The notes beneath the pieces are model-generated. The model did no database searches. It saw nothing but the letters and a program-made list of their open reading frames with translations, and was not told the origin of the DNA. 64,000 bases of DNA from NCBI GenBank assembly GCA_037441645.1, contig JBBIRU010000016.1, positions 67,042 to 131,041 of the forward strand, given 5' to 3'. A program made the translations under genes and the position numbers. This stretch comes from Bacteroidota bacterium. GTDB lineage: Bacteria > Bacteroidota > Bacteroidia > Bacteroidales > GWA2-32-17. This document shows, one piece after another, positions 34,356 through 64,000 of the stretch; positions within the stretch are counted from its first letter, which is position 1, and every line of letters begins with the position of its first letter.

Positions 34356-34360
34356 TGGTG

Positions 34361-40954: not shown

Positions 40955-40997
40955 TTATTGAAAATATTATAAGTCCCCTTTTGAATTGATTAAAGAA

Positions 40998-48300: not shown

Positions 48301-48549
48301 GGCTGCATTCTTCTCGGCAAATGCTTTTTTATAGATCTTATCGACTATTTCCAGAGCCGATTTTGGCAATCCCTTGGAATCGAGACTGTCTACAGTTGCC
48401 CAATCTTTCCTGTAATCATTTGAGTTTGCAAAATGAAGGGGCTTGTCGATAGGTCTGGGATTTATTCTTTTCATACTTATTCCGGCTATTACAATTGAAA
48501 ACAGAAGGATTGCAGAAGCCAACAGGGGCATAAATTTATTCGTTTTCAT
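42382..48549 (-). CDS. Alpha-2-macroglobulin family protein (2055 aa) with intact thioester motif
   Basis: N-terminal signal-anchor and a helical N-terminal extension. Macroglobulin-like repeats. Low-complexity bait-like segment ('YYYSGNYYGYGGYEESRGN...DKRDEGSGN') directly before 'RTNLNETAFFYP'. Thioester 'YPYECSEQ'. C-terminal receptor-binding-type domain. Confidence 0.9.
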   Translation of the reverse strand: MKTNKFMPLLASAILLFSIVIAGISMKRINPRPIDKPLHFANSNDYRKDWATVDSLDSKGLPKSALEIVDKIYKKAFAEKNAAQVVKARIYQLKYRNAIEEDAFEKIVTDLAKDAEIMHYPYNSVFHSISASLYWMYYQNNRWKFSNRSETVNFVNNDIKTWDLNKLADVCIKHYMKSLESEDSLKRTLVTEVEAVLNKGQGTDGLRPTLYDFLAFRAVEFFSNKEIALSRPVDKFELKEDFYFSNAGEFVKQNFQNSDTLSLQFYGIKVLQKLLDFHIRDAKPEAFIDADLARLNFVYFNSVNPEKDSLYIESLKSICKKYEDVPFVSEASYRLAFLYNTLSSGYNYEDSTTFKFKNYKNKAMDICLKMIQKYPEASGTLKCENLKEQIENKSISFETEDVINPGKPYAIKLNYLNLKKAWIRIASIDIEEYEKLAENNYGVEYVGKLMKAVKVIKNYEVPLPEDNDYNNHSVEFIGDTLPFGHYVIFVSQNKEFNYDNDAMAYNDIMVTDISYMKRRMEDGTYQVYVAHRKTGEPLQGVIVQEYFSKYNYLTRKYVINKGDTHTTDENGFASVLLKYDKDVYNTGLEFHWNKQTLKTKQNFYNYRYNNERPKTYSIILFTDRAIYRPGQTVYYKGVVVEVDGDNRNIAKNFSTTLSFKDPNYQSVQEVNQVTNEFGTFSGTLQIPQGLLNGLFQLVTPYGSQSISVEEYKRPKFITEVLPFNGSYRVGDSVEVVAKGTAYSGPSISDAQVTYRVVRTPVWRGWWWRPFRQTSVEIINGKLKTDEKGEVRFKFKAVPDLSFKADDYTDFDYQVYIDITDINGETQSSSGSVTVGYTTLQISSSIPDMVNAADTQKFHIYTTNLNGEEVGAAGKITISKLEDEKEILRSRLWQKPDKYSYTKDEWNKLFPGNVYQAESDLSKSKTIKQVFEYSFDTHKEEKFVIKDLSKWDPGRYVINMNSVDSFGKKVINKKYIVVYSEKSEHLPYATPFWSVSVKHDCEPGESAKFLVGSSYPNAYVLYEVEHKNEIIILKKWLKISNGQVLIDIPVKEEYRGNFAVHFRIIADNRYYSFDETVYVPYSNKLLKMSFETFRDKLLPGQQEEWKIKISGPKGEKVAAEMVAALYDKSLDALKANYWDFSVFPTYYMSLQLTPDLFSSGSSSQIVKNYKTYSSYPYQTYDQLNWFGFYYYSGNYYGYGGYEESRGNRHKGVALMAKTAAPPPSEMNGEYDEAEKSVDATGKLEQKERAVSDTTISDPFAADVDKRDEGSGNVKVRTNLNETAFFYPTLSTNENGEVIVKFTVPEALTKWRMMGFAHTQNLEYGFIGNELVTQKELMVIPNLPRFFRENDKMELSVKISNLTDKEMTGQSGLEFTDPITMKPVSGIIAKQDESKTFTASAKGNTTVTWALTIPEGINALAVKVVAVSGQFSDGEQSVVPVMSNRMMVTESLPLPIRGNQSKTFEFKKLIESGNSNTLRNFKYTLEFTSNPAWYAVQALPYLIEYPYECSEQLFSRYYANSLATHIANSSPKIKSVFDSWKNTPDSKALLSNLEKNQELKSVLLQETPWVLDAQDESQRKRNVGLLFDLNRMANEMQSALAKLEKAQSSNGGWPWFPGMPESRYITQHIITGFGHLQKLKVVDYNNDNKLRSMVTDGVKFLDEEIRDDYNNLLKYYSKEELQKKHIGSTQEQYLYCRSFYTEIPVPNKCKEAFDYFKGQAEKYWLTENKYLQGMMALGLHRYGSKTVPQDIIKSLKENSIDHEELGMYWKDVEAGYYWWNAPIETEALLIEAFDEISNDQKSVEEMKIWLLKQKQTQDWKTTKATVEAIYALLLKGVDLLADDQLVEIVVGNQVIDPKKTDGVNVEAGTGYFKTSWQGGEITPEMGKVKVTKNTQGVAWGAVYWQYFEQLDKITPHETPLKLKKELFVERLTSSGKVIEPLAAGAILKVGDKVIVRIELRVDRNMEFVHMKDMRAAAFEPMNVISTYKYQDGLGYYETTKDASTNFFMDYLPKGTYVFEYPLRTSFKGDFSNGITSIQCMYAPEFSSHSQGVRIKVE

Positions 48550-48679
48550 AGTTCAGATATTTTAGGCTAATTACAACGATGTAAAATAGCTATAATTATT
48601 TATTTTTGAAAACAGATTCCTCATTTAGAAAATTCCATAAAATCAAAATGGATTTCTTAAGAATAAAATCAATTGGTAC

Positions 48680-50620
48680 TTACTCTTTCACAGAGGTTAT
48701 AACCAATTCTGTTCTGCGGTTCAATGCTCTTCCTTCTTCAGTATCGTTGGTTGCAATTGGTTTGGAAAAGCTGTAGCCTTTATAAGTCATTCGCTTTGCA
48801 TTTATTCCACGAGAAGTAAGAAAATCATAAACTGCTTTCGCCCTGTTTTGAGAAAGTTTAATGTTATGTTCGGCTGAACCGACATTATCTGTATGTCCGC
48901 CAATTTCCACGGATACACCCGGATTGTCATTCAGAAACGTAATAATCTTCCCAAGTTCTACGGTAGATTCAGACTTAAGATTAAACAAGTCCGTATCAAA
49001 GAATATATTTTTCAGAACTATTGATGCTCCTTCTTTAACTGGCTGCAGGTATACATCACGTTTATATGTTGAACTAACATCTTTTAATCCCCTGAGTGAG
49101 AAATTGTCGCTGTAAAACAGGTATCCTTTCCTTGAAACATTCATTGCGTAATCGTGTTCTGCCGGAAGACAGGCAAGATATGCACCATTCCTGGGATCAG
49201 AAAGCACCTGGGCTACGGTGTCAGCTGTTTCCAATTCCTGAATATCGATTGCGGCTTCCAGTTTTTGCTTTGTTACAGCATCATAAACTATCCCGGCCAC
49301 ATATGTTACAGGAGTGGGTCTGGCTTCCGGATATAATTCAAAACCAAAAATATCCCAATCGACAGTACCTTTCCGGTTGGAAGAATAATATGCAAAATTT
49401 CCTTTTACATTAACAATTAATCCAAAATCATCTGCATATGTATTTATAGGATATCCAATATTCTTTGGAGTAGACCATGTTCCGTCATTTTTCAACCTTG
49501 AATAAAAAATATCCTGTCCTCCCATTCCCGGCCATCCATCGGATGAAAAATACAGGGTTTTGCCATCGGGGTGAATAAAAGGAGCATATTCATTCCCCGG
49601 AGTATTTATACTATCTCCCATATTTTCGGGTTCCGACCACGTACCATTTGCCAGCTTATGACACATATAAATATCGCGCCCACCTCTTGAACCGGGTCTT
49701 CCTCCTGAAGCAAAAAAAAGAATTCGTCCATCCGAAGAAGGTGCCGGGTTCGACTCCCAATAACTGGTACTGATAGGTGGTCCTATATTTTTTGGTTCTG
49801 ACCATGTATTCCCTATTTTTTCGGAGTAATAAATATCACATGATCCGAAATCTTCCCTGCGGTTACAGGCAGTATAAAACAAGAAACGCCCATCGGCAGA
49901 AATGCCCTGGGCTCCTTCGTTATCTTCGGTATTTAAAGGAGGGCCGGCATTCATAGATGGCGACCATGTTCCATCATCATTTTTATAAGTAATAAAAAAA
50001 TCTTCCTGCATTTGCGTTGCTCCCATAGGTGTTCGCATGTTGGTTGGCAGTTGCGAGGTAAAAATCAAAGTTTTTTCATCAGCTGTAAGTGAAGGCCAGT
50101 AATCCTTATATTTAGTATTTACGTAAGGCCCCAGATTAACAGGATTAAAAGGAACCGGGTGTTCAACAGCCCATGCGCCAAACCCGGCTTTTTTCAGTAA
50201 TTGTCCTGCCTCATTCTCAATGGACGAATCAAGAGTTGTGTAAGTTAAACATTTCTCAAGATGTTTTACCGCTTCACTATAGAGCCCGGTTTTCATTTCG
50301 GATCTGGCAACAGTAAAATATATTTTCGGGTTAAAGTCGGGGTTTATTTCCATGACCTTTTTAAAAGCTTCTATTTCTTTATCGAAATGCTGGAGTTCAT
50401 TTTCCATATCGGCAGTTAACAAATAAGGTTCGATAAAATTCGGATCCTTTTCGAGCGCCAGTCTAATGTAGGTTCTTGTATTTTCGAGATTCCCCTGGTT
50501 AAAATATGCCAATGCATTTTCGAAAAGTGCGATAGCTTTTTTATTTTTAGTAGAGTATTCATTTTGAGAAAATGAACAAACCGAATACATAAATAATATT
50601 ATAAAAAGAATGAATCTCAT
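48680..50620 (-). CDS. TPR + TolB-like beta-propeller + OmpA-domain protein
   Basis: 646 aa with a signal peptide and TPR units at the N-terminus. Repeated 'W(S/T)xPxN(L/I/M)Gxx(I/L)NT' WD40-like/PD40 blades. C-terminal OmpA domain ('NIFFDTDLFNL','GHTDNVGS..HN..LS..RA','NRRTELVI'). Confidence 0.88.
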   Translation of the reverse strand: MRFILFIILFMYSVCSFSQNEYSTKNKKAIALFENALAYFNQGNLENTRTYIRLALEKDPNFIEPYLLTADMENELQHFDKEIEAFKKVMEINPDFNPKIYFTVARSEMKTGLYSEAVKHLEKCLTYTTLDSSIENEAGQLLKKAGFGAWAVEHPVPFNPVNLGPYVNTKYKDYWPSLTADEKTLIFTSQLPTNMRTPMGATQMQEDFFITYKNDDGTWSPSMNAGPPLNTEDNEGAQGISADGRFLFYTACNRREDFGSCDIYYSEKIGNTWSEPKNIGPPISTSYWESNPAPSSDGRILFFASGGRPGSRGGRDIYMCHKLANGTWSEPENMGDSINTPGNEYAPFIHPDGKTLYFSSDGWPGMGGQDIFYSRLKNDGTWSTPKNIGYPINTYADDFGLIVNVKGNFAYYSSNRKGTVDWDIFGFELYPEARPTPVTYVAGIVYDAVTKQKLEAAIDIQELETADTVAQVLSDPRNGAYLACLPAEHDYAMNVSRKGYLFYSDNFSLRGLKDVSSTYKRDVYLQPVKEGASIVLKNIFFDTDLFNLKSESTVELGKIITFLNDNPGVSVEIGGHTDNVGSAEHNIKLSQNRAKAVYDFLTSRGINAKRMTYKGYSFSKPIATNDTEEGRALNRRTELVITSVKE

Positions 50621-50623
50621 GAA

Positions 50624-51250
50624 TTAAGGAATCTGCATGAATTTATGTGATTGTAAAGAAATATTCCATTTTGGATTTGCTTTTACATATTCTACCACTT
50701 CTTTAATAATTGTATCGAACTTACTCCATTCAGGTTGCAAAAACAACTTGCAATTATTATTTATTAATTCGGCATTTTTTTCGGCCCATTCAAAATCTTC
50801 TTTTGATTGTATTACAACTTTAAGTTCATCGGCAATATTGTATATTTCAGGTTCGGGCAATGCCTGTCGTTTAGGAGAAAAACATATCCAGTCCCATGTA
50901 CCCGACAAAGGGTGTGAACCACTCGTTTCCAGGAACGTCTCCATATTTTTTTCTTTTAGCTTTTTGCACAAATAATCGAGGTTATGACTTAACGGCTCGC
51001 CTCCTGTAACAACTACCGATTTTGCGGCAAATCCAGCCGCTCTTTCAACCACTTCGTCCACAGTTACCAGCCAATGCGATTGATTGTCCCAGGAGAATTT
51101 TGTATCGCACCATGCGCAGGTATTATCGCAACCTCCCACGCGTATAAAATAAGCAGGTTTTCCGGTATGAAATCCTTCCCCCTGAATCGAATAAAATTCC
51201 TCCACCACAGGAAGTTTTTTTTCACTCATATCGCTTTTGTTCATTGTCAT
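50624..51250 (-). CDS. queE: 7-carboxy-7-deazaguanine synthase (radical SAM)
   Basis: 208 aa. 'EFYSIQGEG' and the 'GGCDNTCAWCDTKF' CX3CX2C cluster motif. Confidence 0.9.
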   Translation of the reverse strand: MTMNKSDMSEKKLPVVEEFYSIQGEGFHTGKPAYFIRVGGCDNTCAWCDTKFSWDNQSHWLVTVDEVVERAAGFAAKSVVVTGGEPLSHNLDYLCKKLKEKNMETFLETSGSHPLSGTWDWICFSPKRQALPEPEIYNIADELKVVIQSKEDFEWAEKNAELINNNCKLFLQPEWSKFDTIIKEVVEYVKANPKWNISLQSHKFMQIP

Positions 51251-51340: not shown

Positions 51341-53020
51341 TTAGTTCAAACTTTCCGTTTCTTCGCCGGTATTTTTCTTTTTGTGCTTCGTATAATAGAC
51401 CGAGATAGCTATTGAAATTATAGCCAGGAACATAAAAGCAACAATACGATAAATAATTCCTACGCTGGCAAGATCTACAATAAAAAGATAAATGGCGGCA
51501 GCTATCATAGTAAAGATTGCCATCCACCTGTATTTAATATTGTGAATCAAAATGCTTAAGATGAAATACACAACTGCTGCAATGGTCCATGATAATGTAA
51601 CATATTGTCCTGGAACAACTTTATATAATGCATAAAGCATTGCAAAAAAACCTAAAATCAGGTAAATGTTTCTTAACAAATCTGTTTTGATATCCAGTCT
51701 TTCGCTTTGTAAATTAATAACACGGGCTGTTATTATTGCTATAACGGCAAATGAGAAATTAATGGAATGAATTGATTCTGCCGAAAAATAGTAACCGGTC
51801 ATTAAAAGAATAAAAAGAAAAAAATTCATAAACACAATGATTTTTGACCTGAACCAGATAGCCATCGAAACGACCAGTAAACTCTGGATTGATAACAACA
51901 AATAGGCAAGTGGCAAACCAAAAATTCCATAAATGGCTGTACTTATTGAAACAAAACCATAAAGGGCATAAAAAGCCGGTGTGTATTTCCACTCTGAATA
52001 TTTTTTCAAGAACACCGAAAAAAGTAAACAAATCGCAGAAATAGACAGGAAAATTCCTACATAATTCATCATATAGAAAGTAATCACATACATGGTAAGA
52101 ATTACTGTAAAGAATAAACCATTAAGAATAATTGAAATAAAAACAAATGCTTCCGGAATAGATTCCCTTTGCTTAAATAATGTGATCATTGAGAAAGCAG
52201 AAACACAAATAAAGAGATAAGCAATGCTGTAATGATCTGTGAGTTCTGCAGGTATATTTTTTTCAGCATTAGCATGAACCAAATACCAGATAACAAATGA
52301 TATGTAAGATATAAATTGAGAAATGATAATAAGTTTCCACCAACTGTTCTTATGCAAAAGATAAACCGAAAACAATACGGCCAGGGTCGCTATGGAAAGC
52401 ATAAAGTGTGTAGTATTACTGATATTTGCCGTTATAAGAAGTAAAATAAAACCAATGGAGGCAAGAAACTCTGAACGGTTTTTATTGGCAAAATAAAATT
52501 GAACAATACTAATTACTACTAACAGGATTAAAGGAATAACCGGTTCTGAAATAAGCGGAAAATCGGTAAAAAAATGAAGCCGCAAAGTAACATAAAATAG
52601 AAGTATATAGCTTATAATATTAAATTTAGAGGATAGTCCCGGGATAGATTTGCGAATATAATGGGCTATGATAAATACTATGCCGGCAGCAAAGTAACCG
52701 AAAAGAGTAGAAAATAAGGGCTGTCCGGAACTCTGAATATATTGTGTAACAAATGCAATTCCAAACAAAAGAACAATACTTCCGAGCCACCCTAAACCAA
52801 ACTCACCGATTCTTGATTCCATGGCAAACTCTTTTTCTGAACCGGAAGATTTTTGTTTCAATTCTTCAGTAGTAAGTTCCCTTTCGTATTTTTTAAATTC
52901 TTCCTGGGATACTTTTCGGATGCCTAATAAAGACTCCAACTGGCCTATTCTTCGTTCGAGATAGTCAAGCCTTTCTAAAATTTTATCATCCATTTTATGT
53001 TCTTCTGATTTTTCTGACAT
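51341..53020 (-). CDS. DUF2339-type polytopic membrane protein
   Basis: 559 aa. N-terminal coiled-coil segment ('LERLDYLERRIGQLESLL') followed by >12 hydrophobic helices. Confidence 0.75.
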   Translation of the reverse strand: MSEKSEEHKMDDKILERLDYLERRIGQLESLLGIRKVSQEEFKKYERELTTEELKQKSSGSEKEFAMESRIGEFGLGWLGSIVLLFGIAFVTQYIQSSGQPLFSTLFGYFAAGIVFIIAHYIRKSIPGLSSKFNIISYILLFYVTLRLHFFTDFPLISEPVIPLILLVVISIVQFYFANKNRSEFLASIGFILLLITANISNTTHFMLSIATLAVLFSVYLLHKNSWWKLIIISQFISYISFVIWYLVHANAEKNIPAELTDHYSIAYLFICVSAFSMITLFKQRESIPEAFVFISIILNGLFFTVILTMYVITFYMMNYVGIFLSISAICLLFSVFLKKYSEWKYTPAFYALYGFVSISTAIYGIFGLPLAYLLLSIQSLLVVSMAIWFRSKIIVFMNFFLFILLMTGYYFSAESIHSINFSFAVIAIITARVINLQSERLDIKTDLLRNIYLILGFFAMLYALYKVVPGQYVTLSWTIAAVVYFILSILIHNIKYRWMAIFTMIAAAIYLFIVDLASVGIIYRIVAFMFLAIISIAISVYYTKHKKKNTGEETESLN

Positions 53021-53125: not shown

Positions 53126-54325
53126 TTATTCATGTTCAATATGTGGTGCTTTTTTCCAGGGTGGCAGTAACCATAAAAGAACGGATAATATTATTAATGG
53201 AACTACAATCCATATCATAGCCATTAAAAATCCTTCTTTACCTATCAGATCTAATTTAAAATCAGTGAATCCATAGAAACTCTTTGAAAATAACTGACCG
53301 CCTATTACTACGTTCCATCTCATAAAGAATATTCCAACTAAAACAAATCCTGCAATAATAAAATAAAAGAATTTGCGAATATTTTCTTTAGGTTTTATAA
53401 ATTGGAATGTGCCCAGTGTAACTAAAGGAATTAGTGTTCCTATTAATCCTTGCATTATGAAAAATGTAAAGAATAATTTACCATGTACTAAAAGATTAAG
53501 TATATCAAAAGATTCTTCAGCTACATAAATTCTGTGAATCTGATCCAAACCTTCAAGAACAAAGTCAATAACAAGAATAAAGAATAAGTATTTTCCAATG
53601 GCATCGAGACAAACTATGTCGAGTTTTTGTTTCCTTAAAAAATTTACTACCATATAGATAAACATAACCAGAGCAATACCGGAGACCATAGCAGAAAAAA
53701 GAAAAATAACAGGCATCATAACTGTGGACCACCATGGATTTGCTTTTATTGACCCAAAAATAAAACCGACATATCCATGAAGAAGGAAAGCCGACGGGAT
53801 ACCGACTACCGTTATAAAATACCCAAGTTTATTGTCAGTTTTACGCGATAATGGCGAAGTATCTTTAATCCCCAGGGTAAGAATTTTATAAAGAAAAGTT
53901 TTAAACCCTTTCTTTTCTTTTGACCATATAGTCATATCGTATCTGTAATCAAACCATATCTCTAACAACAATACAACCATCAGGTACCATAAATACACAA
54001 AACCAAAAATAGCCATGGCAGAGGTAAGATGTGGTGTGGTCATTATCTCATATGCCCGCCAGGGAACTCCCAAATGATTAATTAATGGCATGGTTGCAAC
54101 AAGCATAAAGGAAAGTGCAGTAAGAAGAGATAACTCATAAGTTGGCTTTAATGCCTGAACATTAAAAACCCTGTTTAGAGATGCCAGAATAAAAGCACCG
54201 GCAACCAATCCTGTTATATATGGATAAAGAACAATGAGAATTGACCAGTTTAATTCTATCTCGTTCGGATAGCAGAAGCCATCCATATGGGACATAGCTT
54301 CATATAATGATTTAAATTCTTCCAT
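53126..54325 (-). CDS. NrfD/PsrC-family polytopic membrane (quinone-interacting) subunit
   Basis: 399 aa of hydrophobic helices throughout. The start lies 1 nt after the stop of the FeS subunit gene. Composition and context match NrfD/PsrC/DsrP-type subunits. Confidence 0.8.
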   Translation of the reverse strand: MEEFKSLYEAMSHMDGFCYPNEIELNWSILIVLYPYITGLVAGAFILASLNRVFNVQALKPTYELSLLTALSFMLVATMPLINHLGVPWRAYEIMTTPHLTSAMAIFGFVYLWYLMVVLLLEIWFDYRYDMTIWSKEKKGFKTFLYKILTLGIKDTSPLSRKTDNKLGYFITVVGIPSAFLLHGYVGFIFGSIKANPWWSTVMMPVIFLFSAMVSGIALVMFIYMVVNFLRKQKLDIVCLDAIGKYLFFILVIDFVLEGLDQIHRIYVAEESFDILNLLVHGKLFFTFFIMQGLIGTLIPLVTLGTFQFIKPKENIRKFFYFIIAGFVLVGIFFMRWNVVIGGQLFSKSFYGFTDFKLDLIGKEGFLMAMIWIVVPLIILSVLLWLLPPWKKAPHIEHE

Positions 54326-54326: not shown

Positions 54327-55091
54327 CTAATGTACCTCCTGACTTAATGAATTATAATAGAGTTTTGATCCTGTATTTAAATTTGGTTTTAAAACGGCCA
54401 CGTTATGGTTTTTAATAAATTTAACCAATTCACTTTTAGGATCGCGCAAATCACCATAAATCCTTGCACCGGTAGGACATACCATCATACAGGCAGGATC
54501 CAATCCTTTTTTAACTCTATGGTAACATAATGTACATTTATCTACCGTTCCCAGGTCAGGTTTAATATACCTGCAACCATAAGGACATGCCTGAACACAA
54601 TAACGACATCCGACACAATAATTTGGATCTGCTAGCACGAAACCATCGGGCGTTTCAAAAGTAGCACCTACCGGACAAACCTGAACACAAGGAGATTTCG
54701 CACAATGATTACACATTTTTGGAACATAGAAAGTTTTAAATATCTCTGATTCAGGTACCGGTTGTTTATAACCATCAATACCGCCATTGGGAGATTGAAC
54801 TTTTACTTCGCCGCTATTTGTAATAGTATATTGTTCAACCCAACTTCTAAAAAAGAAGGGTTCTTTAGGAACATCATTTTCAGCTTTACAGGCACGGGCA
54901 CAACTGGCACAACCAATACATTTTTCGATATCTAATCCGATACCATACCAAGGGCCGTCTCCTTTAGGTTCCTGCGAAGCGTATACTGCTTTCAGCGGAT
55001 TGAGCAGGGATGCAAATAATACACCTCCAGCTATAGCTCCAGATTTTTTAAAAAAATCTCTTCTTGAAAAATTTTCTTTTTCTTTTACCAT
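54327..55091 (-). CDS. Tat-exported four-cluster [4Fe-4S] ferredoxin subunit (NrfC/PsrB/HybA/DsrO type)
   Basis: 254 aa. Twin-arginine signal 'SRRDFFKKSGAIAGG'. Cys groups 'CIGCASCARAC', 'CNHCAKSPCVQVCP', 'CVGCRYCVQACP' and 'CTLCYHRV...ACMMVCP'. Confidence 0.9.
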   Translation of the reverse strand: MVKEKENFSRRDFFKKSGAIAGGVLFASLLNPLKAVYASQEPKGDGPWYGIGLDIEKCIGCASCARACKAENDVPKEPFFFRSWVEQYTITNSGEVKVQSPNGGIDGYKQPVPESEIFKTFYVPKMCNHCAKSPCVQVCPVGATFETPDGFVLADPNYCVGCRYCVQACPYGCRYIKPDLGTVDKCTLCYHRVKKGLDPACMMVCPTGARIYGDLRDPKSELVKFIKNHNVAVLKPNLNTGSKLYYNSLSQEVH

Positions 55092-55531
55092 AACACAGGA
55101 TTATGAGAATTATGACAACTTATACATTCATCTTCTTTATTATGCTCTTCTATATCAATTTGTTTTATGACTTTTGCACGGGCCGGGTTTTTAGCATGAC
55201 ACCTGCCGCAAAATTCGCGGGTGTGTTCTTTTACAATATTCGTTTTTTGAGGATCGTCTACATGTTTGTAACCGGGGCCATGACATGTCTGACAGTCTAT
55301 TGACTTATGAACACTGCTATCTTTAACAGCTGCAATTGAATCGTGACATGTAACGCATGTTTCATTCATGTTTACATACTTAATGGGCCTGTCTTCATTT
55401 TCCTTTAATGCATCGCCCCTGTAATGGCCATATTCACCAAAACTAGCCGGTCTTAAAAAATGACGGGCAACCAGAAATAATGCAATAAAGACCGCAAATG
55501 CAATCAGAAGTCTTTGTACTTGAACTGGCAT
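55085..55531 (-). CDS. Membrane-anchored tetrahaem cytochrome c (c3/NrfB-like small multihaem)
   Basis: 148 aa with an N-terminal hydrophobic anchor. Four CXXCH motifs: CVTCH, CQTCH, CGRCH, CISCH. Overlaps the FeS gene by 7 nt. Confidence 0.88.
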   Translation of the reverse strand: MPVQVQRLLIAFAVFIALFLVARHFLRPASFGEYGHYRGDALKENEDRPIKYVNMNETCVTCHDSIAAVKDSSVHKSIDCQTCHGPGYKHVDDPQKTNIVKEHTREFCGRCHAKNPARAKVIKQIDIEEHNKEDECISCHNSHNPVLW

Positions 55532-55710
55532 ATATCTATGTATTTAAATATTTGATTAAAAACACAATTCGAGAACTTTACAAAAATGCCTTATGTTATA
55601 AAACATTTTTATTATCGCAAACATAATTGATTTTTTGCCTTACCTAAAAAAAAATAATAAATATTTTCACTTGAATGCCCCATTTTAGAAACATTATAAA
55701 TAAACAATAT

Positions 55711-55744
55711 GAAAAAGAAAAGATTGACATAAAGCCAATCTTTT
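55711..55744 (-). terminator. Hairpin terminator after the heptahaem cytochrome gene
   Basis: 9-bp stem aaaagattg (55718-55726) / caatctttt (55736-55744). On the minus strand it is followed by CTTTTTC. Confidence 0.5.
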
Positions 55745-55773
55745 CAAAATTATTAAAAATTTATAACTGCTAT

Positions 55774-57276
55774 CTAGAACATTTCAAAATGACATTCAGA
55801 ACAATTGGTTGATTTCCATTCTTCACCAACATCTACCGGGTGGATAAATTCCATGGTGCTGTTAATAGGTGCATATTTCATTGAATCCCTCTGGCCCTGC
55901 CCGATTATTGAATGGCACAAATTACAATCTTTGGAAATAACTTTTCCATCGGAACTTTTGTGTTTATCATCGTGACAACGGAAACAACCTTTATTTTCAA
56001 AATGACCAATATTTCTCGGATACTGCTTATAGCTTACTTTCATCTCGGGAAATGTATTATATGAGAATGCTTCCTGTACCGCTGTAATCGCTTTCTTAAT
56101 CTCCTTCTCATATTTGGAAAACAAATCAGGATATCCGTCTTTATAGTATTTTATCATTTGATCGTTTATTCCCATAAAAGCCGAATCTTTGGTAGAATAA
56201 GTGTCATTAGTAGCTTCCATAGCAGCGCTTTTAAGATAGGGAACTTTTGTTGATATCTTATTACCGGCAAATAATCCGTTCACATATTTCGGTGGAGAAA
56301 AATATTCGTGGGATGGGCGATTATGGCAGTCCATACAATCGAACATACGTTTTTCAGAATTCTCTAATTCCTTTGCATTCGGGTGTATAGAAGTATCTTC
56401 CTCCAGGAAAATAATTTCTTTTCCTGTTTGTTTATTAAAATATCTAACCCAAGGTATTGTCTGTCTTTTTTCATCAGCCTGATACGAGATTTCTACATCA
56501 GGGTTAATGTGCCAGTGTATTCCTTCAGTATTACCAAGTGATGAGTGGTCGGCTCCAATTCTCATCTTCATAATAACATCCCATTCGGTATTGGCAGAAT
56601 CGGCCAGGTAATATTTTTCATTCCTGATTTTGTTTGTATAAAATTTCTGTGGCCAGTGACATTTTTCACATGTTTCGCGGGCAGGGCGCAGGTTAGCAAT
56701 AGGTGTTTCTATGGGTCTCGGATAAGTGCCTAATAAATATTTGTATACCTGGCGTAACCCTGACATTTTTGATTTTACATAAAAATCGGCTCCTTCACCC
56801 ACATGGCATTCGGCACATTTAACACGGGCATGAGGTGAATGCTGATATGCAATATATTCAGGTTCCATAACTTTATGACAAAGCTTGCCGCAAAACTCTA
56901 CTGATTCGGTATAATGAAATCCTTTATAGCTACCAATTACAGTTGCAATAACAAAGAATATTGTAACAATGATAAAAATCGTAATCGCATTTCTTGTTTT
57001 GGAATCTTTTAAATTTATAATTAAAAGTTTTTCATCAGATACCGGCAAACCTTTTTTAAGTTTCCGTTTCTTTAAATACATACCGGCAGGTATCAGCACT
57101 AGGCCAAACACCAAAAAACCCGGGGTAACCAAATATGCAAACAATTCGAAATAAACATTATCTGCATTAAAGAAATTTAACTGGATAACAAAAAAGATAA
57201 TTGCAAACGTTGCAATTAAAGCAATTATAGTTCCCAGGTAGGAAATGTAATTGTAATACGTCCGTGGTAGTTTCAT
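55774..57276 (-). CDS. Inner-membrane heptahaem cytochrome c with NapC/NirT-like region and three TM helices (ImcH-like architecture)
   Basis: I prefer the ATG at 57274-57276 ('MKLPRTYYNY...') because the track start is TTG. Three N-terminal hydrophobic helices. Seven CXXCH motifs: CGKLCH, CAECH, CEKCH, CMDCH, CFRCH, CNLCH, CSECH. The first pair, 'FCGKLCHKVM...HARVKCAECHVG', resembles the NapC/NirT quinol-dehydrogenase motif. Confidence 0.85.
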   Translation of the reverse strand: MKLPRTYYNYISYLGTIIALIATFAIIFFVIQLNFFNADNVYFELFAYLVTPGFLVFGLVLIPAGMYLKKRKLKKGLPVSDEKLLIINLKDSKTRNAITIFIIVTIFFVIATVIGSYKGFHYTESVEFCGKLCHKVMEPEYIAYQHSPHARVKCAECHVGEGADFYVKSKMSGLRQVYKYLLGTYPRPIETPIANLRPARETCEKCHWPQKFYTNKIRNEKYYLADSANTEWDVIMKMRIGADHSSLGNTEGIHWHINPDVEISYQADEKRQTIPWVRYFNKQTGKEIIFLEEDTSIHPNAKELENSEKRMFDCMDCHNRPSHEYFSPPKYVNGLFAGNKISTKVPYLKSAAMEATNDTYSTKDSAFMGINDQMIKYYKDGYPDLFSKYEKEIKKAITAVQEAFSYNTFPEMKVSYKQYPRNIGHFENKGCFRCHDDKHKSSDGKVISKDCNLCHSIIGQGQRDSMKYAPINSTMEFIHPVDVGEEWKSTNCSECHFEMF

Positions 57277-57407
57277 TTTATAACTTATTATAGATTTAAC
57301 ATTTATAACTGAAAGCAAATGATTTTATATATTATCATATTTACCTATTCAGTAACGACAAATGTAGGACTGAGTTCCATTTTAAAAAATGCTTTAAAAC
57401 ATGTAAA

Positions 57408-57440
57408 CAAAAAAAGGGTGTTTCACAAGTGAAACACCCT
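57408..57440 (-). terminator. Strong rho-independent terminator after the beta-barrel gene
   Basis: Perfect 12-bp stem agggtgtttcac (57415-57426) / gtgaaacaccct (57429-57440). On the minus strand it is followed by TTTTTTTG. Confidence 0.75.
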
Positions 57441-57464
57441 TTTTACTTTTAGCATTGTTATTAA

Positions 57465-58346
57465 TTAGAATCTAACAGTAATATTAAAACCTATTAATAA
57501 AGTATTAAAATCTCTTTGATTATATAAGTAATTTTTTTGTGCAATTATATTATTATAAGTAGTTGCAAATAATTGAAATGCATGTGTTCCGGTATTTTTT
57601 TCAAGTCCAAATGCAAAACCCGGCTTAGGTGAACCTGGCACATCATTTCCATCAACATCTTTTGGATAGTCAAATGATTCAAGTGGTGAAACATAATTAA
57701 ATTCTCCCATAAATGATATTTCATTCCATATCTTAATTCTACCGCCTACGCTAACACCAATAGCATCATTAGAATATAAAGAATCCACTTTATTAAAATG
57801 TAAATAATAGGGTGCAACTTCTAATGAAATTCTTTCGCTAAACTTACGTGCAATAATAAGTTGATGAAAAGTAGATATACGATCTTTAAAACTATAGTTA
57901 TCTCCAAAATATGCTTCTTCTCTACCGCAAACAACTACATTGCCATAGTATGAAAGAAATATTGGCATTCCATTTTCTTTTTGCTGAAGTATCGAATATT
58001 TCCACATTAATTCCTGCATTTTATTAAATTTTTCGGAACCAAAACCAAGCATTAATTTGTCTGTAATACCATAATTAATTCCAAGTCTAATATTGGCAGG
58101 TCCATATAAACCAAATATATCACTTATACTTTTAATGGTTCCTATTCTGTGATGAATAATAAATTCTTTACCTTTCTTTTTAGGTTGAGTAATGGTTTGA
58201 TTTTCTATTAGCATAGTACATGCAAATGCATCTTCAACGGTTTTTTTTTCTTCTTTCTGAGCTTCTCCTTCTTGAGAAACAGCATATTTAACGCTGACAA
58301 TCAGCATCAAAGATAGAATGAACGATATTTTTTTTAACATAATCAT
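57465..58346 (-). CDS. Small outer-membrane beta-barrel protein (DUF5777-like) cotranscribed with a lipoprotein cytochrome
   Basis: 293 aa. Signal peptide 'SLMLIVSVKYAVSQ'. Alternating hydrophobic beta-strand pattern, C-terminal '...LLIGFNITVRF' (aromatic terminus) and a 'GTHAFQLFATT' motif. The family name is recalled from memory, not searched. Confidence 0.7.
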   Translation of the reverse strand: MIMLKKISFILSLMLIVSVKYAVSQEGEAQKEEKKTVEDAFACTMLIENQTITQPKKKGKEFIIHHRIGTIKSISDIFGLYGPANIRLGINYGITDKLMLGFGSEKFNKMQELMWKYSILQQKENGMPIFLSYYGNVVVCGREEAYFGDNYSFKDRISTFHQLIIARKFSERISLEVAPYYLHFNKVDSLYSNDAIGVSVGGRIKIWNEISFMGEFNYVSPLESFDYPKDVDGNDVPGSPKPGFAFGLEKNTGTHAFQLFATTYNNIIAQKNYLYNQRDFNTLLIGFNITVRF

Positions 58347-58374
58347 TTATTTATTTTTTATTGTTTTTAATATT

Positions 58375-59271
58375 TTACCAGCATGTTTTACCTGCTCCGC
58401 AATGAGCTGCAGTACCATTACTTGAGTATCCCATACCATTTGCCATTGTTCCTCCTTCACTAATATTGAGAGGTTTGAAAAAAGTACTTCCGTCAACATG
58501 ATACATGGTACCGTATGTACCTTGGTTGATAGGGCCATTAATATTTGTTTCATTTGTAGCATTAATAGAATGGCACCAGAAACATTGAACTCCATCCCAA
58601 TAAGGAGTGGAATATGGGGTTGTAGAAAAATTTTGAGTATTTGACATGTGTGCACTTTTTTGATGTGAACCGGATTCTGGATAATCATTTATAGTCATAG
58701 CATTAGGCCGTTCAACAAGGTAAGGAGACGTCATATTTCCTTTACCATTATGGCAAGAAGAACAAGCCGTTATTTTACCATTATCCCATCTTGGAGTTGT
58801 TGCATATTCTACGGTATCAAATGGAGGAGTTTGCATACTCCAGGTATAAGTTCCATCAGTTCCTCTGTCGGCGGTAACTCCGTTACTGTGGCAATAAACA
58901 TTTGAACAGGTTTTAGTGTCGGAATCCCACGTTGGAATATTACTATCAGCTCCATTTCTTGTTGCTAAACCATTAGGATCAAATGTGATATTTTTTACTG
59001 CATTCATGTGTGTTTTCGTATCCCATCCATGTCCATAATGACATGTTGTACAATTAAATGTATATAAACCCTTCGTATGTTTACTATGTGCATTAGTAGA
59101 ATGCAAAGGGAAGGTATTGTTATGACAATTTTCGCAAAAATCAGGTAAAACAATTTGCTCTGTAGAAGAATTATTATGTTTGATTTTCTCTTTTTCACAA
59201 GAGACTAAATAAATTACACTACCTGCTAAGAGCAATGTAAAAATAACAGTTTTAAAACTTTTTAACATCAT
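58375..59271 (-). CDS. Lipoprotein pentahaem cytochrome c with CX4CH...CXXCH (Geobacter-type) signature
   Basis: 298 aa with lipobox 'YLVSC'. Haem sites CENCH, CTTCH, CSNVYCH (CX4CH), CSSCH and CFWCH. Degenerate C-terminal 'HCGAGKTCW'. Ser/Thr/Asn/Gly-rich. Confidence 0.85.
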   Translation of the reverse strand: MMLKSFKTVIFTLLLAGSVIYLVSCEKEKIKHNNSSTEQIVLPDFCENCHNNTFPLHSTNAHSKHTKGLYTFNCTTCHYGHGWDTKTHMNAVKNITFDPNGLATRNGADSNIPTWDSDTKTCSNVYCHSNGVTADRGTDGTYTWSMQTPPFDTVEYATTPRWDNGKITACSSCHNGKGNMTSPYLVERPNAMTINDYPESGSHQKSAHMSNTQNFSTTPYSTPYWDGVQCFWCHSINATNETNINGPINQGTYGTMYHVDGSTFFKPLNISEGGTMANGMGYSSNGTAAHCGAGKTCW

Positions 59272-59480: not shown

Positions 59481-59648
59481 TTATCGTATGCCTTTATTAA
59501 AAATTTTCAACATTTCAAAAACTACAGGCCTGCACCATCTGCAAACAAGGCAGGCTCCTGTTTCATTACAAATTATATCAATATTCTTTGATTTAAATTT
59601 ATCAATTGCATTTAATACCTGTATTTTGAGACAACGGCACAAATACAA
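59481..59648 (-). CDS. Unannotated 55-aa Bfd-like [2Fe-2S]-binding protein (TTG start)
   Basis: Hand translation: (M)YLCRCLKIQVLNAIDKFKSKNIDIICNETGACLVCRWCRPVVFEMLKIFNKGIR*. The C-x-C...C-x2-C layout and the 'xYxCxC' N-terminus parallel E. coli Bfd ('MYVCLC...CGKC'). The ORF is below the 60-aa cutoff of the track. There is no in-frame ATG. Confidence 0.6.
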   Translation of the reverse strand: MYLCRCLKIQVLNAIDKFKSKNIDIICNETGACLVCRWCRPVVFEMLKIFNKGIR

Positions 59649-59685: not shown

Positions 59686-60003
59686 TCATATCAAAAGCAT
59701 TTTAAATTTCTCGTTGGCATTAACTGCATGGGGCACATTTGCGGGCATAATAATAAAATTCCCTGTTTGAACCTGATAAGGAACCTTATTTATTATTATT
59801 TCCCCAACTCCTTCTACAACCTGAACTACTGCATCGAAGGGAGCGGAATGTTCGCTTAATCCCTGTCCTTTATCGAAGGCAAATAAAGTAAGGTTTCCGG
59901 TTTCCTTTTTTGTAACTATCTTACTTACAATTGCACCTTCTGAATATTCTACAGATTTTGCCAGATCGTAAATATTTGAATGCTGAAAAATTAATTCGTT
60001 CAT
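59686..60003 (-). CDS. Cupin-domain protein
   Basis: I prefer the ATG at 60003 ('MNELIFQHSN...'). Single cupin barrel ('GLSEHSAPFDAVVQVVEGVGEIII...GNFIIMPANVPHAV'). Confidence 0.8.
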   Translation of the reverse strand: MNELIFQHSNIYDLAKSVEYSEGAIVSKIVTKKETGNLTLFAFDKGQGLSEHSAPFDAVVQVVEGVGEIIINKVPYQVQTGNFIIMPANVPHAVNANEKFKMLLI

Positions 60004-60114
60004 ATGTTTATATTTTTTGTAACCAGTTTTTTTACAAACAGTGAGTTGTAATTCAGCAACTGGCAATCAGTAGAATATGCAACTGACTACTAATCACTTA
60101 TATTTACTTAAAAA

Positions 60115-60963
60115 TCACACCCACATTTCCTGCTCTATTTCTCCACTGATTTTTAAAATAACCAATTTAATGGGAACTTTCCGTGCAGCTTTCTCTACTG
60201 CCTGCTGGGCTATGCGCAATAACCCTCCGCAACAGGGAACTTCCATAATAGCTACTGTCAGGGTATTGATTTTAGCATCGTCAACCATAGCTTTGATTTT
60301 GTCAACATAAACTTCCATTTCGGAGTCAAGTTTCGGACAGGCAATGGCAATGGTTTTTCCTTTCATCATTTCGGGGTGAAAACTACCCATAGCAAAAGCA
60401 GTACAATCAGCTGCAATGAGTACATCCGCATTCTGAAAATAAGGCGCTCTCGGACTTACAAGGTGCATCTGAATAGGCCATTGTCTTAATTGTGATGAAA
60501 CTTTTCCTTCAAATGTTGTTTCTTCGTTTGTTTTATCCCTTAAATCAATTGTTTTTGCGCCGGGACATCCGCATTCTGAATGATTTTCCATGTTACTGTT
60601 ATTTTTTAGATTAATAATTATGTTGTTCTTTTTTAAATATTCCAATGCCTGATTATAAAATTGAATTTCACCATGATCTTTAAGATGGTTCAAATGTGCT
60701 TTTATAGTATTTTCACCTTGTTTGGAAATAATTTCCATAACTTTTACTTCATCGTAAGGTTCTGCTTCCCTTTCTTCAATAGTTATCGCACCTTCCGGAC
60801 AATGGCCCAAACATGCTCCCAACCCGTCGCAAAAAAGATCTGAGATTAATCTTGCTTTTCCATCAATAATCTGAAGAGCTCCTTCCTGGCAATTTGGAAT
60901 ACATAATCCACAACCATTACATAATTCTTCATCAATATTTACAATCTTTCTTTTCATTATCAA
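60115..60963 (-). CDS. 4Fe-4S dicluster ferredoxin-domain protein (FrdX-like, ~280 aa)
   Basis: N-terminal 'CNGCGLCIPNCQEGAL' and 'CDGLGACLGHCPEGAI' cluster motifs. C-terminal Cys-containing domain ('IAADCTAF','IACPKLD','VPCCGG'). Confidence 0.8.
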   Translation of the reverse strand: MIMKRKIVNIDEELCNGCGLCIPNCQEGALQIIDGKARLISDLFCDGLGACLGHCPEGAITIEEREAEPYDEVKVMEIISKQGENTIKAHLNHLKDHGEIQFYNQALEYLKKNNIIINLKNNSNMENHSECGCPGAKTIDLRDKTNEETTFEGKVSSQLRQWPIQMHLVSPRAPYFQNADVLIAADCTAFAMGSFHPEMMKGKTIAIACPKLDSEMEVYVDKIKAMVDDAKINTLTVAIMEVPCCGGLLRIAQQAVEKAARKVPIKLVILKISGEIEQEMWV

Positions 60964-61049: not shown

Positions 61050-61448
61050 TTACAAGTATTGATCTATCGTTCTGGATTTCAGATAGTCCCTAAATTCATT
61101 GGTAAGATTAAAAACCTTATTGGTCATGATACACATACCAAAAGGACAGATTTCTTTCTCGAACATACATTCAGAAGATTCTATTTTGCCTTCGATTGCC
61201 TCATAAATATCCAAAAGGGAAACAGTTTTTATATCTTTTTTAATACTAAACCCTCCCTGAGGCCCCCTATGAGAATATAAAAATCCTGCTTTTACCAAAC
61301 GTTGCAACACTTTTGCAACATGATGTTTTGACGTGCTTGTTAGTTCAGCAATTTCCAAAACATTAATTTTACCATCCGAACGTGCAATAAGAATTATCCC
61401 ATGCAACGCTATTGACGCAGCCTCTGATATGTTGATTATTTTACTCAT
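61050..61448 (-). CDS. Rrf2-family transcriptional regulator (three clustered Cys; IscR/NsrR-like)
   Basis: 132 aa. wHTH 'LEIAELTSTSKHHVAKVLQRLVKAGFLYSHRGPQGGF' and a Cys triad in 'ECMFEKEICPFGMC'. Confidence 0.9.
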   Translation of the reverse strand: MSKIINISEAASIALHGIILIARSDGKINVLEIAELTSTSKHHVAKVLQRLVKAGFLYSHRGPQGGFSIKKDIKTVSLLDIYEAIEGKIESSECMFEKEICPFGMCIMTNKVFNLTNEFRDYLKSRTIDQYL

Positions 61449-61568: not shown

Positions 61569-64000
61569 ATGAAAACACTTTTATCAACTCTCATCTTTTC
61601 ATTTTTTTTAGTTAATTTAATAGTTGGGCAAGCCACTATTAACCTAACTCCAACAAACGTAAGTTGTTTTGGCAGTTGCTCCGGTTCAATTAATAATTCA
61701 GTTACCGGGGGAACTCCACCCTATAATTATACCTGGAGCAATGGAGCAACAACTCAGAACATTTCCGCATTATGCGCCGGAACATATACAGTTACAGTAT
61801 ATGATGCGTTAGGAATGCCTTCTAATAGTTCTGCCACTGTTTCAGAGCCGCCACAATTAATCAGCTCTATTTTATCTTCTTCAAATGTCTCCTGCTATGG
61901 TCTTTCCAATGGAACAGCTACTGCATATGCAACCGGAGGCGTACCGGGTTATACTTATTTATGGTCGAATTCTCAAACTACAGTAACAGCTACAGGATTA
62001 ACTGCCGGAACATATTCGGTTACAGTACATGACGTAAATTTATGTCAATCTGTTTCTACCGTAACCATTACTCAACCAACACAAATTAATTATACTACAG
62101 TTGCTTTAAATAATGTAACTTGTTCTGGAGGAAATGATGGATCATTTAATATTACAGTAACCGGTGGCGTTCCGGCCTATTCTTATAGCTGGACAGGGCC
62201 ATCGGGTTTTACTTCATCCACCGAAGATCAGACTGGTCTTCAGGCAGGAACTTATTATGTTACAATTACGGATGCCAGCGCCTGCAGTATTACCTCTTCT
62301 ATCAGCATTAATGTATCATCAACACTTACTTCCGGTATCTCATCTTTCACAGATGTTACCTGTAATGGAGGCTCCAATGGCTCCGCTACTGTAACTCCAT
62401 CAGGGGGAAACCCACCCTACACTTACCTATGGAACGATCCGGCTCCTGTCCAAACCACAGCAACATGCACAGGATTAACAGCAGGATCGTGGTCTGTAAC
62501 AGTTACAGATGCCAATAGTTGTACTTCAATTTCAACTGCAACAATTATTCAACCTCAGCCAATTACTGCCAATGCTGGTTTTGACCAAACTATTTGTGCA
62601 AATAGTACAATTGCTCTTAACGGATTTATTACTGTAGCAACAGGAGGTATATGGTCTTCAAGTGGTTCAGGTACATTTATTCCGGATAATATTTCATTGA
62701 ATGCAACCTATATTCCTTCAGCATCAGATATTCTTGCAGGAAATGTGATTCTTACTCTTACTACAACGGGTAATGGTTCTTGTAGTTCAGTTTCAGATAA
62801 TATTGTTATCACATTTTTGCCTTCACCTACAGCAACATTTACAGTGCAGTCTCCTATATGTGCAAATGATATATCATCTATTGTTTATACTGGAACAGGT
62901 GGGGTAGGTGATATTTATAACTGGAATTTTAGTGGAGCTATTCTGCTTTCGGGTGTTGCAGGTACTCCGGGGCCATTTACTGTTTCTTGGAATACAGCAA
63001 ATAATTATTTGGTTTCATTAGATGTAATGAGTATAAATGGTTGTTCTAATAACTATCAGGTTATTGCAACAGTAAATGACAATCCTACTGCAACTGGAAC
63101 AATAACCGGTTCAAGTTGCCTTAATAACGATGGAATTATTTCTATTATATGTAATGGAGGAACTGTACCATACTCATATCTTTGGACCAACCTGATGATT
63201 AATGATACGATTTCAGGATTATCATCGGGTATTTACTCACTAACAGTTACAGATGCTAATTCATGTACAACTACTGCAACTTATACTGTTCCTCAAATTT
63301 CTTTTAACGCAAACATAAATGGTTCTGCTTCCTATTCAGGAGGAAATATTCCTATGGGAGAAGCTGTTGCAAATTTATTTGTAGAATCGTCGGGAACAGG
63401 TTCGGCACAGTTTGATTCATTAACTTCTTCTTTCTTTACATCAACCGGCTTTAGTTTCTATAACCTTACACCGGGCAGATATCTTTTAGAAATAGTTCTG
63501 ACAAACCCTGCAAGCTATCCAACGCTTTTAAATACCTACTATAATAATCAGTACTTATGGACTTTGGCAGATACAATAAATCTGGTTTGTGATGACAATT
63601 TAACCTTACCTGTTCAAATGTATGAGATACCAGATACAATGAACGGGAATTGTAATTTAAATGGTACCATAATTCTGTGGTCAGGAAGTAAAGCTGTTGG
63701 CGAACCGGTACCCGGAGCAGAAATATTAATTGAACAGGAGCCCAATGATGTACCTATTCAGTCGGCATATACAGATATTAATGGAAACTACACTCTTCAG
63801 AATATCTCATCCGGAAACGGTTATCATTTACTCGTTGATATTCCCGGATTTCCATTGCTGTCAACATATCTTAATCTTACGATAAACACAACTGATACCT
63901 TACTAAGTAATCTCAATTTTTATTTAGATACAACTCTTGGCGGAGGAATCTTTATCGATACGGCAACCGGTTTTTCAAATCCTTTTGTTGAGTCGGGTAT
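61569..64000 (+). CDS. SprB-repeat cell-surface protein, 5'-partial (runs off the window; absent from the ORF track)
   Basis: I translated the frame from the ATG at 61569 by hand and found it open to 64000 (>810 codons). Signal peptide 'MKTLLSTLIFSFFLVNLIVGQ'. At least 5 units of 'NVSC.G..NG...v..tGG.pPYtY.W....T....gL.AGtY.VTV.Da..C'. A carboxypeptidase-regulatory-like segment follows ('GAEILIEQEPNDVPIQSAYTDINGNYTL'). Confidence 0.85.
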   Translation, partial: MKTLLSTLIFSFFLVNLIVGQATINLTPTNVSCFGSCSGSINNSVTGGTPPYNYTWSNGATTQNISALCAGTYTVTVYDALGMPSNSSATVSEPPQLISSILSSSNVSCYGLSNGTATAYATGGVPGYTYLWSNSQTTVTATGLTAGTYSVTVHDVNLCQSVSTVTITQPTQINYTTVALNNVTCSGGNDGSFNITVTGGVPAYSYSWTGPSGFTSSTEDQTGLQAGTYYVTITDASACSITSSISINVSSTLTSGISSFTDVTCNGGSNGSATVTPSGGNPPYTYLWNDPAPVQTTATCTGLTAGSWSVTVTDANSCTSISTATIIQPQPITANAGFDQTICANSTIALNGFITVATGGIWSSSGSGTFIPDNISLNATYIPSASDILAGNVILTLTTTGNGSCSSVSDNIVITFLPSPTATFTVQSPICANDISSIVYTGTGGVGDIYNWNFSGAILLSGVAGTPGPFTVSWNTANNYLVSLDVMSINGCSNNYQVIATVNDNPTATGTITGSSCLNNDGIISIICNGGTVPYSYLWTNLMINDTISGLSSGIYSLTVTDANSCTTTATYTVPQISFNANINGSASYSGGNIPMGEAVANLFVESSGTGSAQFDSLTSSFFTSTGFSFYNLTPGRYLLEIVLTNPASYPTLLNTYYNNQYLWTLADTINLVCDDNLTLPVQMYEIPDTMNGNCNLNGTIILWSGSKAVGEPVPGAEILIEQEPNDVPIQSAYTDINGNYTLQNISSGNGYHLLVDIPGFPLLSTYLNLTINTTDTLLSNLNFYLDTTLGGGIFIDTATGFSNPFVESG

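Follow-up and report, generated by a model that had tools for sequence, protein, structure and literature searches.

Few routes are known by which electrons move across or at the Gram-negative outer membrane (Mtr/Pcc/Ext and Cyc2), and most work on them has been done in Proteobacteria and Desulfobacterota. In the MtrCAB, OmaB-OmbB-OmcB (Pcc) and ExtABCD/EFG conduits, a barrel of 18-26 strands encloses a cytochrome (PMC6148476, PMC8406198), and in the Ext conduits of Geobacter the components ExtC and ExtF are pentahaem lipoproteins (PMC6148476). Cyc2, from iron-oxidising bacteria, carries a short cytochrome domain and a 16-strand OprO/OprP-like porin in a single chain (PMC8406198). For the Bacteroidetes, metagenomic surveys give only unspecified 'putative PCC' and 'Cyc2 homologs' and unexplained putative extracellular electron transfer (EET) genes (PMC6344600). 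Anoxic sediments, peat, groundwater and bioelectrochemical biofilms all have abundant Bacteroidota. Here we describe a pair of adjacent genes in a 64,000-nt stretch of a Bacteroidota contig, JBBIRU010000016.1 (the whole stretch analysed is hereafter called the window), which encode a five-haem lipoprotein cytochrome and a small outer-membrane beta-barrel of family DUF5777. The pair represents a rare, five-haem form of a cytochrome-barrel module that is widespread in Bacteroidota but undescribed, and the wide coupling of DUF5777 barrels to cytochromes suggests that electrons are moved at the outer membrane by a route so far unrecognised.

DUF5777 barrels and their cytochrome neighbours

The barrel of the pair is a full-length DUF5777 protein (PF19089, 'membrane bound beta barrel domain'; E = 5e-63), scoring 213 bits against a cut-off of 23.1 over profile positions 1-247 of 247; no NCBIfam name applied to it. 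The family is large, with more than 1,000 matches among 90%-identity clusters and 1,939 clusters at 50% identity (E <= 1e-3), and it occurs in 494 or more GTDB species genomes, almost all of them from Bacteroidota; carriers include genomes of Draconibacterium, Lutibacter and Saprospiraceae, and one match was labelled Gammaproteobacteria and one Chlorobi. Tandem duplicates also occur, in which one chain holds two complete DUF5777 barrels and no cytochrome domain (P0174, 615 aa; L095, 588 aa).

Neighbouring genes were tabulated for 79 GTDB species-level loci, with haem motifs at the -1 and +1 positions counted over 77 of them; open reading frames (ORFs) in related loci were called heuristically and indexed relative to the barrel, and the 80-locus samples are the best-scoring matches rather than random draws. 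That barrels of this family should be enriched beside cytochrome genes, an expectation raised in a preliminary description of the window, is borne out: the -1 gene, on the same strand and a short gap away, encodes a haem motif in 74 of the 77 loci, compared with 8 of 211 background ORFs (Fisher p = 2e-55), and natural fusions of the two proteins exist besides. All 74 of these haem-bearing products have a lipobox. The great majority would bind one haem (65 cases), the others having two (5), four (1) or five (3), and in 70 of the 79 loci the -1 position is held by a homologous family of monohaem lipoproteins, ~125 aa long, that resembles PSCyt1 and class I cytochrome c. One such monohaem partner (locus L005, 5578-5970) matched the Leptospira 'LIC11213 family lipoprotein' of NCBIfam below the threshold (E = 1e-8), so related small haem lipoproteins may exist outside Bacteroidota.

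On the other side of the barrel, a multihaem gene lies 3' in 58 of the 77 relatives. By motif count the +1 gene encodes a heptahaem cytochrome in 53 of 77 loci, and its homologues are found in 61 of 79, mostly at +1; a PF01292 cytochrome b, with PhsC as best match, has homologues in 54 of 79 loci, mostly at +2. Genes for DsrO-like Fe-S and DsrP/NrfD-like proteins lie further downstream in 23 of 79 loci, and a Crp/Fnr regulator is nearby in 40 of 79. Periplasmic multihaem cytochromes and membrane modules that interact with quinones are thus regular companions of the DUF5777 module. The preliminary description had presented the pair as a self-contained, minimal unit of a previously undescribed type. 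The first half of that proposal needs correction, for periplasmic multihaem and quinol-dehydrogenase genes regularly follow, and we therefore regard the module as the end of a longer chain. The second half stands to the extent that the literature searched contains no mention of DUF5777 and no description of a Bacteroidota cytochrome-barrel module, but the pair itself proves to be a rare five-haem variant of a widespread and usually monohaem module. In some loci HmuY-like proteins and TonB-dependent receptors adjoin the module (L003, 7104-11634; L170, 2827-5118), which could be a link to haem or iron uptake, or coincidence.

Within the window, the gene for a membrane-anchored NapC/NirT/NrfH-like multihaem cytochrome, a probable quinol dehydrogenase, fills the slot that a multihaem gene occupies after the barrel in relatives. 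In two of the closest relatives (L007 and L008) the gene after that of the barrel encodes a protein of 928 aa with 19 haem motifs and a PF01292 cytochrome b domain, an architecture that we take to resemble CbcL. Three types of quinol dehydrogenase thus appear in the downstream slot: a heptahaem cytochrome with a PhsC-like cytochrome b, a fusion of a 19-haem cytochrome with cytochrome b, and an NrfH-like protein with NrfCD. That three non-orthologous solutions share one slot argues for a conserved function, namely, delivery of quinone-pool electrons towards the outer-membrane pair.

The five-haem CxxxxCH cytochrome is a small family (38 matches) confined, as barrel partner, to close relatives of the window. 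Homologues of ~300 aa share contigs with the barrels closest to that of the window, the pair being directly visible in loci L001, L002 and L007-L009, and the two proteins diverge together: barrel identity falls from 87% to 53% as cytochrome identity falls from 77% to 58%. Barrels at most 49% identical to that of the window have the monohaem lipoprotein as partner. We conclude from these pairings that a CxxxxCH-family cytochrome has taken over the place that the monohaem lipoprotein usually occupies.

Gene fusions provide a further tie. In P0279 a class I cytochrome c domain is fused N-terminally to DUF5777, and a search with this protein found 67 clusters, one of them from a Lutibacter genome, in which PF13442/PF00034 and PF19089 occur in one chain of ~400 aa. 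In all three fusion loci examined the next gene encodes a PSCyt1-like monohaem lipoprotein; this retention indicates that the lipoprotein is the universal partner and the fused cytochrome an extra. One fusion locus is adjoined by a peroxiredoxin gene. A divergent subfamily from metagenomes, ~30% identical to the window barrel, usually has the order monohaem lipoprotein, YceI-like protein, barrel: a haem protein is encoded at most three genes 5' of the barrel in 53 of 74 loci, and 61 of the 74 encode a YceI-like protein.

The five-haem cytochrome and the barrel model

Both ORFs of the pair were confirmed on the minus strand with the 28-nt interval reported for them (Table 1); this spacer contains no terminator, and the two genes are probably co-transcribed. 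Gaps between cytochrome and barrel genes are also short in 70 or more related loci (medians of tens of nt). Terminator-like hairpins do bound the pair as reported, the upstream one ending a preceding cupin/small-ORF unit and the downstream one beginning 20 nt past the barrel stop codon; a scan of the region found six such sites where 1.2 were expected. The -7 box reported upstream, TAATTTTG, is likewise present, but TAnnTTTG motifs are not enriched across the 64-kb window (71 found, 90 expected), so both this box and TACATTTG, 5' of the NrfH-like gene, are plausible by position only. The second box suggests that the NrfH-like gene may have its own promoter and form a separate transcription unit.

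The cytochrome agrees with its earlier account in having a lipobox (LVSC, Cys25), a mature chain rich in Ser, Thr, Asn and Gly (together 41%), and one CX4CH site beside four CXXCH sites (CENCH46, CTTCH74, CSNVYCH122, CSSCH170 and CFWCH230). Across 33 aligned homologues, all five motifs and the candidate distal ligands H88, H203, H258 and H290 vary little or not at all, and the succession of a CX4CH by a CXXCH motif (C122-x4-C127-H128, then C170-xx-C173-H174) is conserved. In one respect the account needs correction: the C-terminal 'CGAGKTCW', which had been called degenerate, is no remnant. It belongs to an HCGAGKTCW segment in which H290, C291, C297 and W298 (H-C-x5-C-W, at the extreme C-terminus) are invariant in 33 of 33 homologues, and which we therefore consider a conserved feature. 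The protein passes the curated cut-offs of both TIGR01904 (37.3 bits against 27) and PF09698 (27.2 bits against 21.7); a profile search of PDB sequences returned no meaningful solved relative.

For the barrel, the signal peptide (type I), alternating amphipathic strands and C-terminal Phe that had been noted are all there. An AlphaFold2 model built from a 54-sequence alignment is a confident barrel of 12 beta strands (mean predicted local distance difference test, pLDDT, 88; predicted template modelling score, pTM, 0.81), and so neither a non-barrel fold nor the closed 8-strand anchor that had been named as the alternatives. Foldseek against PDB with this model gave only generic outer-membrane barrels, at probability 1.0; the best TM-scores went to the 12-strand barrels NanC (0.69), FapF (0.60) and Tsx (0.54), with the FadL, TodX and COG4313 channels also among the matches, and the profile search of PDB sequences found no sequence-related solved structure. 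At 12 strands, and comparable in size with NanC, Tsx and FapF, the barrel could not sheath the cytochrome, as its length had already suggested.

Residues conserved across the family (H66, R67, G79, N85, K116, Q122, P128, N185, G247, H255, Q258, G286 and N288) are mostly polar or glycine, the polar ones being invariant or nearly so, and fall on the polar, lumen-facing phase of strands or in predicted periplasmic turns, the assignment of strands and loops to periplasmic and external sides assuming the standard rule for outer-membrane barrels (N-in, C-in). Residues ~35-59 form a conserved N-terminal segment, confident but non-regular in the model. Predicted external loops L1-L4 have fixed lengths family-wide. 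When barrels paired with five-haem and with monohaem cytochromes were compared, the differing positions were scattered, the length of predicted external loop L5 being the only clear signal.

A proposed quinol-fed chain and its competitors

Given the enrichment, the co-divergence and the fusions, barrel and cytochrome are very probably coupled in function. As to what the coupled proteins do, we lean, tentatively, towards the pair being the outer-membrane end of a quinol-fed envelope electron-transfer chain, in which the 12-strand barrel and the lipid-anchored cytochrome act as one unit. Menaquinol electrons would reach the pair via the adjacent NrfH-like, tetrahaem and NrfCD-like proteins, and the flow could serve either outward respiration or inward oxidation. 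With somewhat more reserve still, we favour for the pair a redox site at the mouth of a pore, as in Cyc2, over a sheath as in Mtr, because the barrel has 12 strands, a conserved polar lumen and, in the fusions, a cytochrome at its N-terminus, which in ordinary outer-membrane barrels faces the periplasm. The haem or haems would lie at the mouth of a narrow, specific pore lined by the conserved polar residues, and a small redox species, which could be a metal ion or a shuttle, soluble or lipophilic, would enter or cross the pore and exchange electrons with the haem. Candidate shuttles would be of quinone or humic type, or a lipophilic molecule in the YceI-containing subfamily; in the window, a five-haem cytochrome in place of the monohaem partner would lengthen the haem chain.

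Several observations weigh against this quinol-fed, pore-mouth arrangement. In the window the NrfH cluster is set off from the pair by a terminator, and no multihaem gene follows the barrel in L001, L002 or L009. In the AlphaFold2 model of the fusion P0279, the cytochrome domain has a pLDDT below 50, too low to place it relative to the barrel. The pore itself is inferred, as are the placement of the N-terminal segment, which may plug it, and the docking side of the cytochrome. Loop L5 is 8 residues longer in barrels with the five-haem cytochrome, which favours a contact on the external side, although L5 does not settle the docking side. Finally, distant relatives of the cytochrome (>400 aa) lie beside NHL-repeat proteins and proteins with a type IX secretion system (T9SS) tail, not beside barrels, a context that hints at an extracellular life for the five-haem family and so favours a trans-membrane alternative. 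In two loci (L087, 1573-5976; L088, 3179-4411) these longer relatives adjoin NHL/DUF5128 beta-propellers and a small protein that bears a T9SS sorting tail.

The alternative in question is a true trans-outer-membrane conduit that repeats the logic of Mtr/Pcc in miniature: a surface-exposed lipoprotein cytochrome, with a periplasmic cytochrome (heptahaem, NrfH-like or the fused class I domain) docked below, and electrons passing between haems inserted from both ends of the barrel or along a lipoprotein tether or domain through the lumen. The longer L5 and the T9SS/NHL neighbours would suit such a conduit, as would the fusions, which put one cytochrome at the periplasm-facing N-terminus of the barrel and retain a separate lipoprotein cytochrome (three loci). 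The mature lipoproteins begin with acidic sequences (CEK, CEYEFIEPE, CYYDNEE) that recall what is generally known of surface-export signals in Bacteroidota, but the post-Cys sequences apparently fit the published consensus for export signals poorly. Known conduits are defined by a lipoprotein cytochrome, a barrel and a periplasmic multihaem cytochrome together (PMC6148476), a set that the module matches. The lumen of a 12-strand barrel, however, is far too narrow for a folded haem domain, known conduits having 18-26 strands, and in the monohaem majority there would be one haem per side and no single-step tunnelling across the barrel unless both were deeply inserted. On balance we consider a conduit rather unlikely, though it is the main rival; its MtrB-like form, with a sheathed cytochrome, is rejected on the strand count.

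More improbable is a role outside respiration, in envelope protection or lipid redox chemistry, where the barrel would handle a hydrophobic redox species (a quinone or lipid-derived radical) and electrons would be carried to or from it by the cytochromes, joined in other subfamilies by a YceI lipocalin, in a manner analogous to BcnA/LcoA. YceI and b561, which are linked genetically, give protection from lipid peroxyl radicals (PMC9113575), and both have counterparts here, in the YceI-like protein encoded between monohaem lipoprotein and barrel in the divergent subfamily and in the b561-type PF01292 cytochrome of the window's subfamily. The hydrophobic-substrate channels FadL, TodX and COG4313 among the fold matches, and the peroxiredoxin gene next to one fusion locus, point the same way. 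Yet the window locus lacks YceI, five haems are excessive for the quenching of radicals, and the window's subfamily is found in anaerobic Bacteroidales with Crp/Fnr, heptahaem and NrfCD-type modules, which are typical of respiration. A protective role related to YceI/b561 is possible mainly for the aerobic subfamily.

We think it very improbable that the barrel is a Slam-like factor for assembly, export or anchoring of the lipoprotein cytochrome, with no part in electron transfer. Its tight adjacency to a lipoprotein, whatever the cytochrome family, does recall the pairing of Slam proteins with their substrates, as generally understood. But the fusion of a soluble class I cytochrome to the barrel, seen in 67 clusters, would be needless in a translocon and disfavours a pure export or anchoring role; Pfam shows no DUF560/TPR architecture in the barrel; and His, Arg, Gln, Asn and Lys residues of the lumen are invariant family-wide despite the differing partners. 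Chance adjacency or mis-annotation of unrelated neighbours is effectively refuted by the enrichment, the fusions and the co-divergence on shared contigs.

It is possible, if doubtful, that besides the sheathed Mtr/Pcc conduits and Cyc2 there is a third class of device for outer-membrane electron transfer, different in structure from both and formed by DUF5777 with its lipoprotein cytochrome; as a 12-strand barrel cannot enclose a cytochrome, electrons would then move across or at the outer membrane in a way that has yet to be described. Bacteroidales of sediment, peat, lake and groundwater would in that event have an unrecognised extracellular redox capacity, with the five-haem form in the window as a specialist for acceptors that are insoluble or polymeric. 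The module is a testable candidate for electron exchange between Bacteroidota and iron, humics or shuttles, conserved, provided with natural fusion forms and apparently non-homologous to known systems, and gives DUF5777, with its ~1,900 sequence clusters, a first functional context. It also poses a mechanistic question, that of how charge passes a 12-strand barrel where no chain of haems fits.

Genomic surroundings and comparison with known systems

Haem motifs occur in only three ORFs of the 64-kb window, all within 55085-59271 (Table 1).

Table 1. Features of the cytochrome-barrel locus, in window coordinates
Feature	Position	Strand	Description
Cytochrome gene	58375-59271	minus	298 aa, five haem-binding motifs, CxxxxCH/CxxCH family
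Barrel gene	57465-58346	minus	293 aa, DUF5777 outer-membrane beta-barrel
Spacer between cytochrome and barrel genes	58347-58374	minus	28 nt, no terminator
Terminator-like hairpin 5' of the pair	59463-59428	minus	16-pair stem, 4-nt loop, T-rich tail
Terminator-like hairpin 3' of the pair	57444-57411	minus	15-pair stem AAAAAGGGTGTTTCAC/GTGAAACACCCTTTTT, T tail
TAATTTTG, candidate Bacteroidota-type -7 promoter box	59342-59335	minus	64 nt 5' of the cytochrome ATG
TACATTTG, -7-like box, TAnnTTTG type	57366-57359	minus	precedes the NrfH-like gene
NapC/NirT/NrfH-like membrane-anchored multihaem cytochrome	55774-57318	minus	6 CXXCH and 1 CX3CH
Tetrahaem cytochrome c	55085-55531	minus	148 aa
TtrB/DsrO/NrfC-like Fe-S protein	54327-55091	minus	four-cluster, Tat-like signal
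NrfD/PsrC-type integral-membrane subunit	53126-54325	minus	quinone-interacting
Rrf2 regulator	61050-61448	minus	
AF_0155-like 4Fe-4S protein	60115-60963	minus	
Cupin	59686-60066	minus	

Directly 5' of the pair, genes for Rrf2, the AF_0155-like protein and one or two cupins stand in the same order in the window, in L001/L002 and in L008 (836-3853), a synteny that suggests a larger conserved unit, possibly regulated by iron or redox state. Between the cupin gene and the upstream terminator lies an ORF for a Cys-rich protein of 55 aa (CxC...CxxCxxC; 59481-59648, minus strand); a Bfd-like 2Fe-2S identity was considered for it and dropped, as Pfam gave no match. Directly after the NrfD gene is that of a predicted membrane protein of 559 aa (51341-53020, minus strand) with only a weak match to DUF2339; this protein possibly belongs to the NrfCD-like complex as another subunit.

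Farther out, the minus strand 3' of the respiratory genes (38609-51250) encodes radical-SAM, TPR/PD40/OmpA, OmpA-family and Omp85/POTRA proteins and a bacterial alpha-2-macroglobulin of 2,055 aa, a stretch rich in envelope proteins with no evident link to the cytochrome-barrel pair. On the plus strand, an ORF of at least 816 aa (~61570-64000) runs past the right end of the window; with its signal peptide and repeated motifs of the 'TNVSCFGSCSG' type it looks like a large SprB-like surface protein. Five tRNA genes (Rfam) at 32847-34540 on the minus strand, beside an ORF of 395 aa and two large ORFs (1,282 and 1,428 aa), look like a standard tuf/ribosomal-protein/rpoBC region.

Set against described systems, the barrel is not of the Slam (DUF560) type, in which a 14-strand barrel has N-terminal TPR: PF19089 is its sole Pfam match. 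With the YceI/b561 proteins (BcnA/LcoA; PMC9113575) there is common ground in the PF01292 and YceI-like genes in operons of other DUF5777 subfamilies; that system has no described outer-membrane barrel or c-type cytochrome component (PMC9113575), and around the window pair neither YceI nor PF01292 is present. The CxxxxCH/CxxCH cytochromes of Geobacter (TIGR01904/PF09698) share the CX4CH...CXXCH spacing of the window cytochrome, which differs in being a short, five-haem lipoprotein restricted to a small Bacteroidota clade, with an invariant H-C-x5-C-W and an obligate DUF5777 neighbour that its longer relatives lack.

The Mtr/Pcc/Ext conduits resemble the locus in their combination of a lipoprotein multihaem cytochrome, a barrel and a periplasmic multihaem cytochrome fed by inner-membrane quinol dehydrogenases (CymA/NapC-like or CbcL-like), and the pentahaem lipoproteins ExtC and ExtF compare with the five-haem lipoprotein of the window, where the lipoprotein and periplasmic multihaem cytochromes are co-encoded with a terminator intervening. 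The differences lie in the barrel, which has 12 strands rather than 18-26 and no match to the Mtr/Pcc porin families in a Pfam scan, and in the single-haem lipoprotein with which most DUF5777 members pair.

Cyc2 is distinguished by its published description: DUF5777 has 12 strands and a Pfam family of its own and is not a 16-strand OprO/OprP-like barrel, OprP lying outside the top Foldseek matches; the domain fused to it is a full class I cytochrome c, with a separate lipoprotein cytochrome in addition; and the version in the window consists of two separate genes and five haems rather than a single monohaem chain. The module nonetheless resembles Cyc2. Both join an outer-membrane barrel to a small, usually one-haem c-type cytochrome, attached N-terminally or encoded adjacently; in one DUF5777 subfamily the two form a single fused chain of ~400 aa; and in both the barrel is too small for a chain of cytochromes, so that the substrate must come to the pore.

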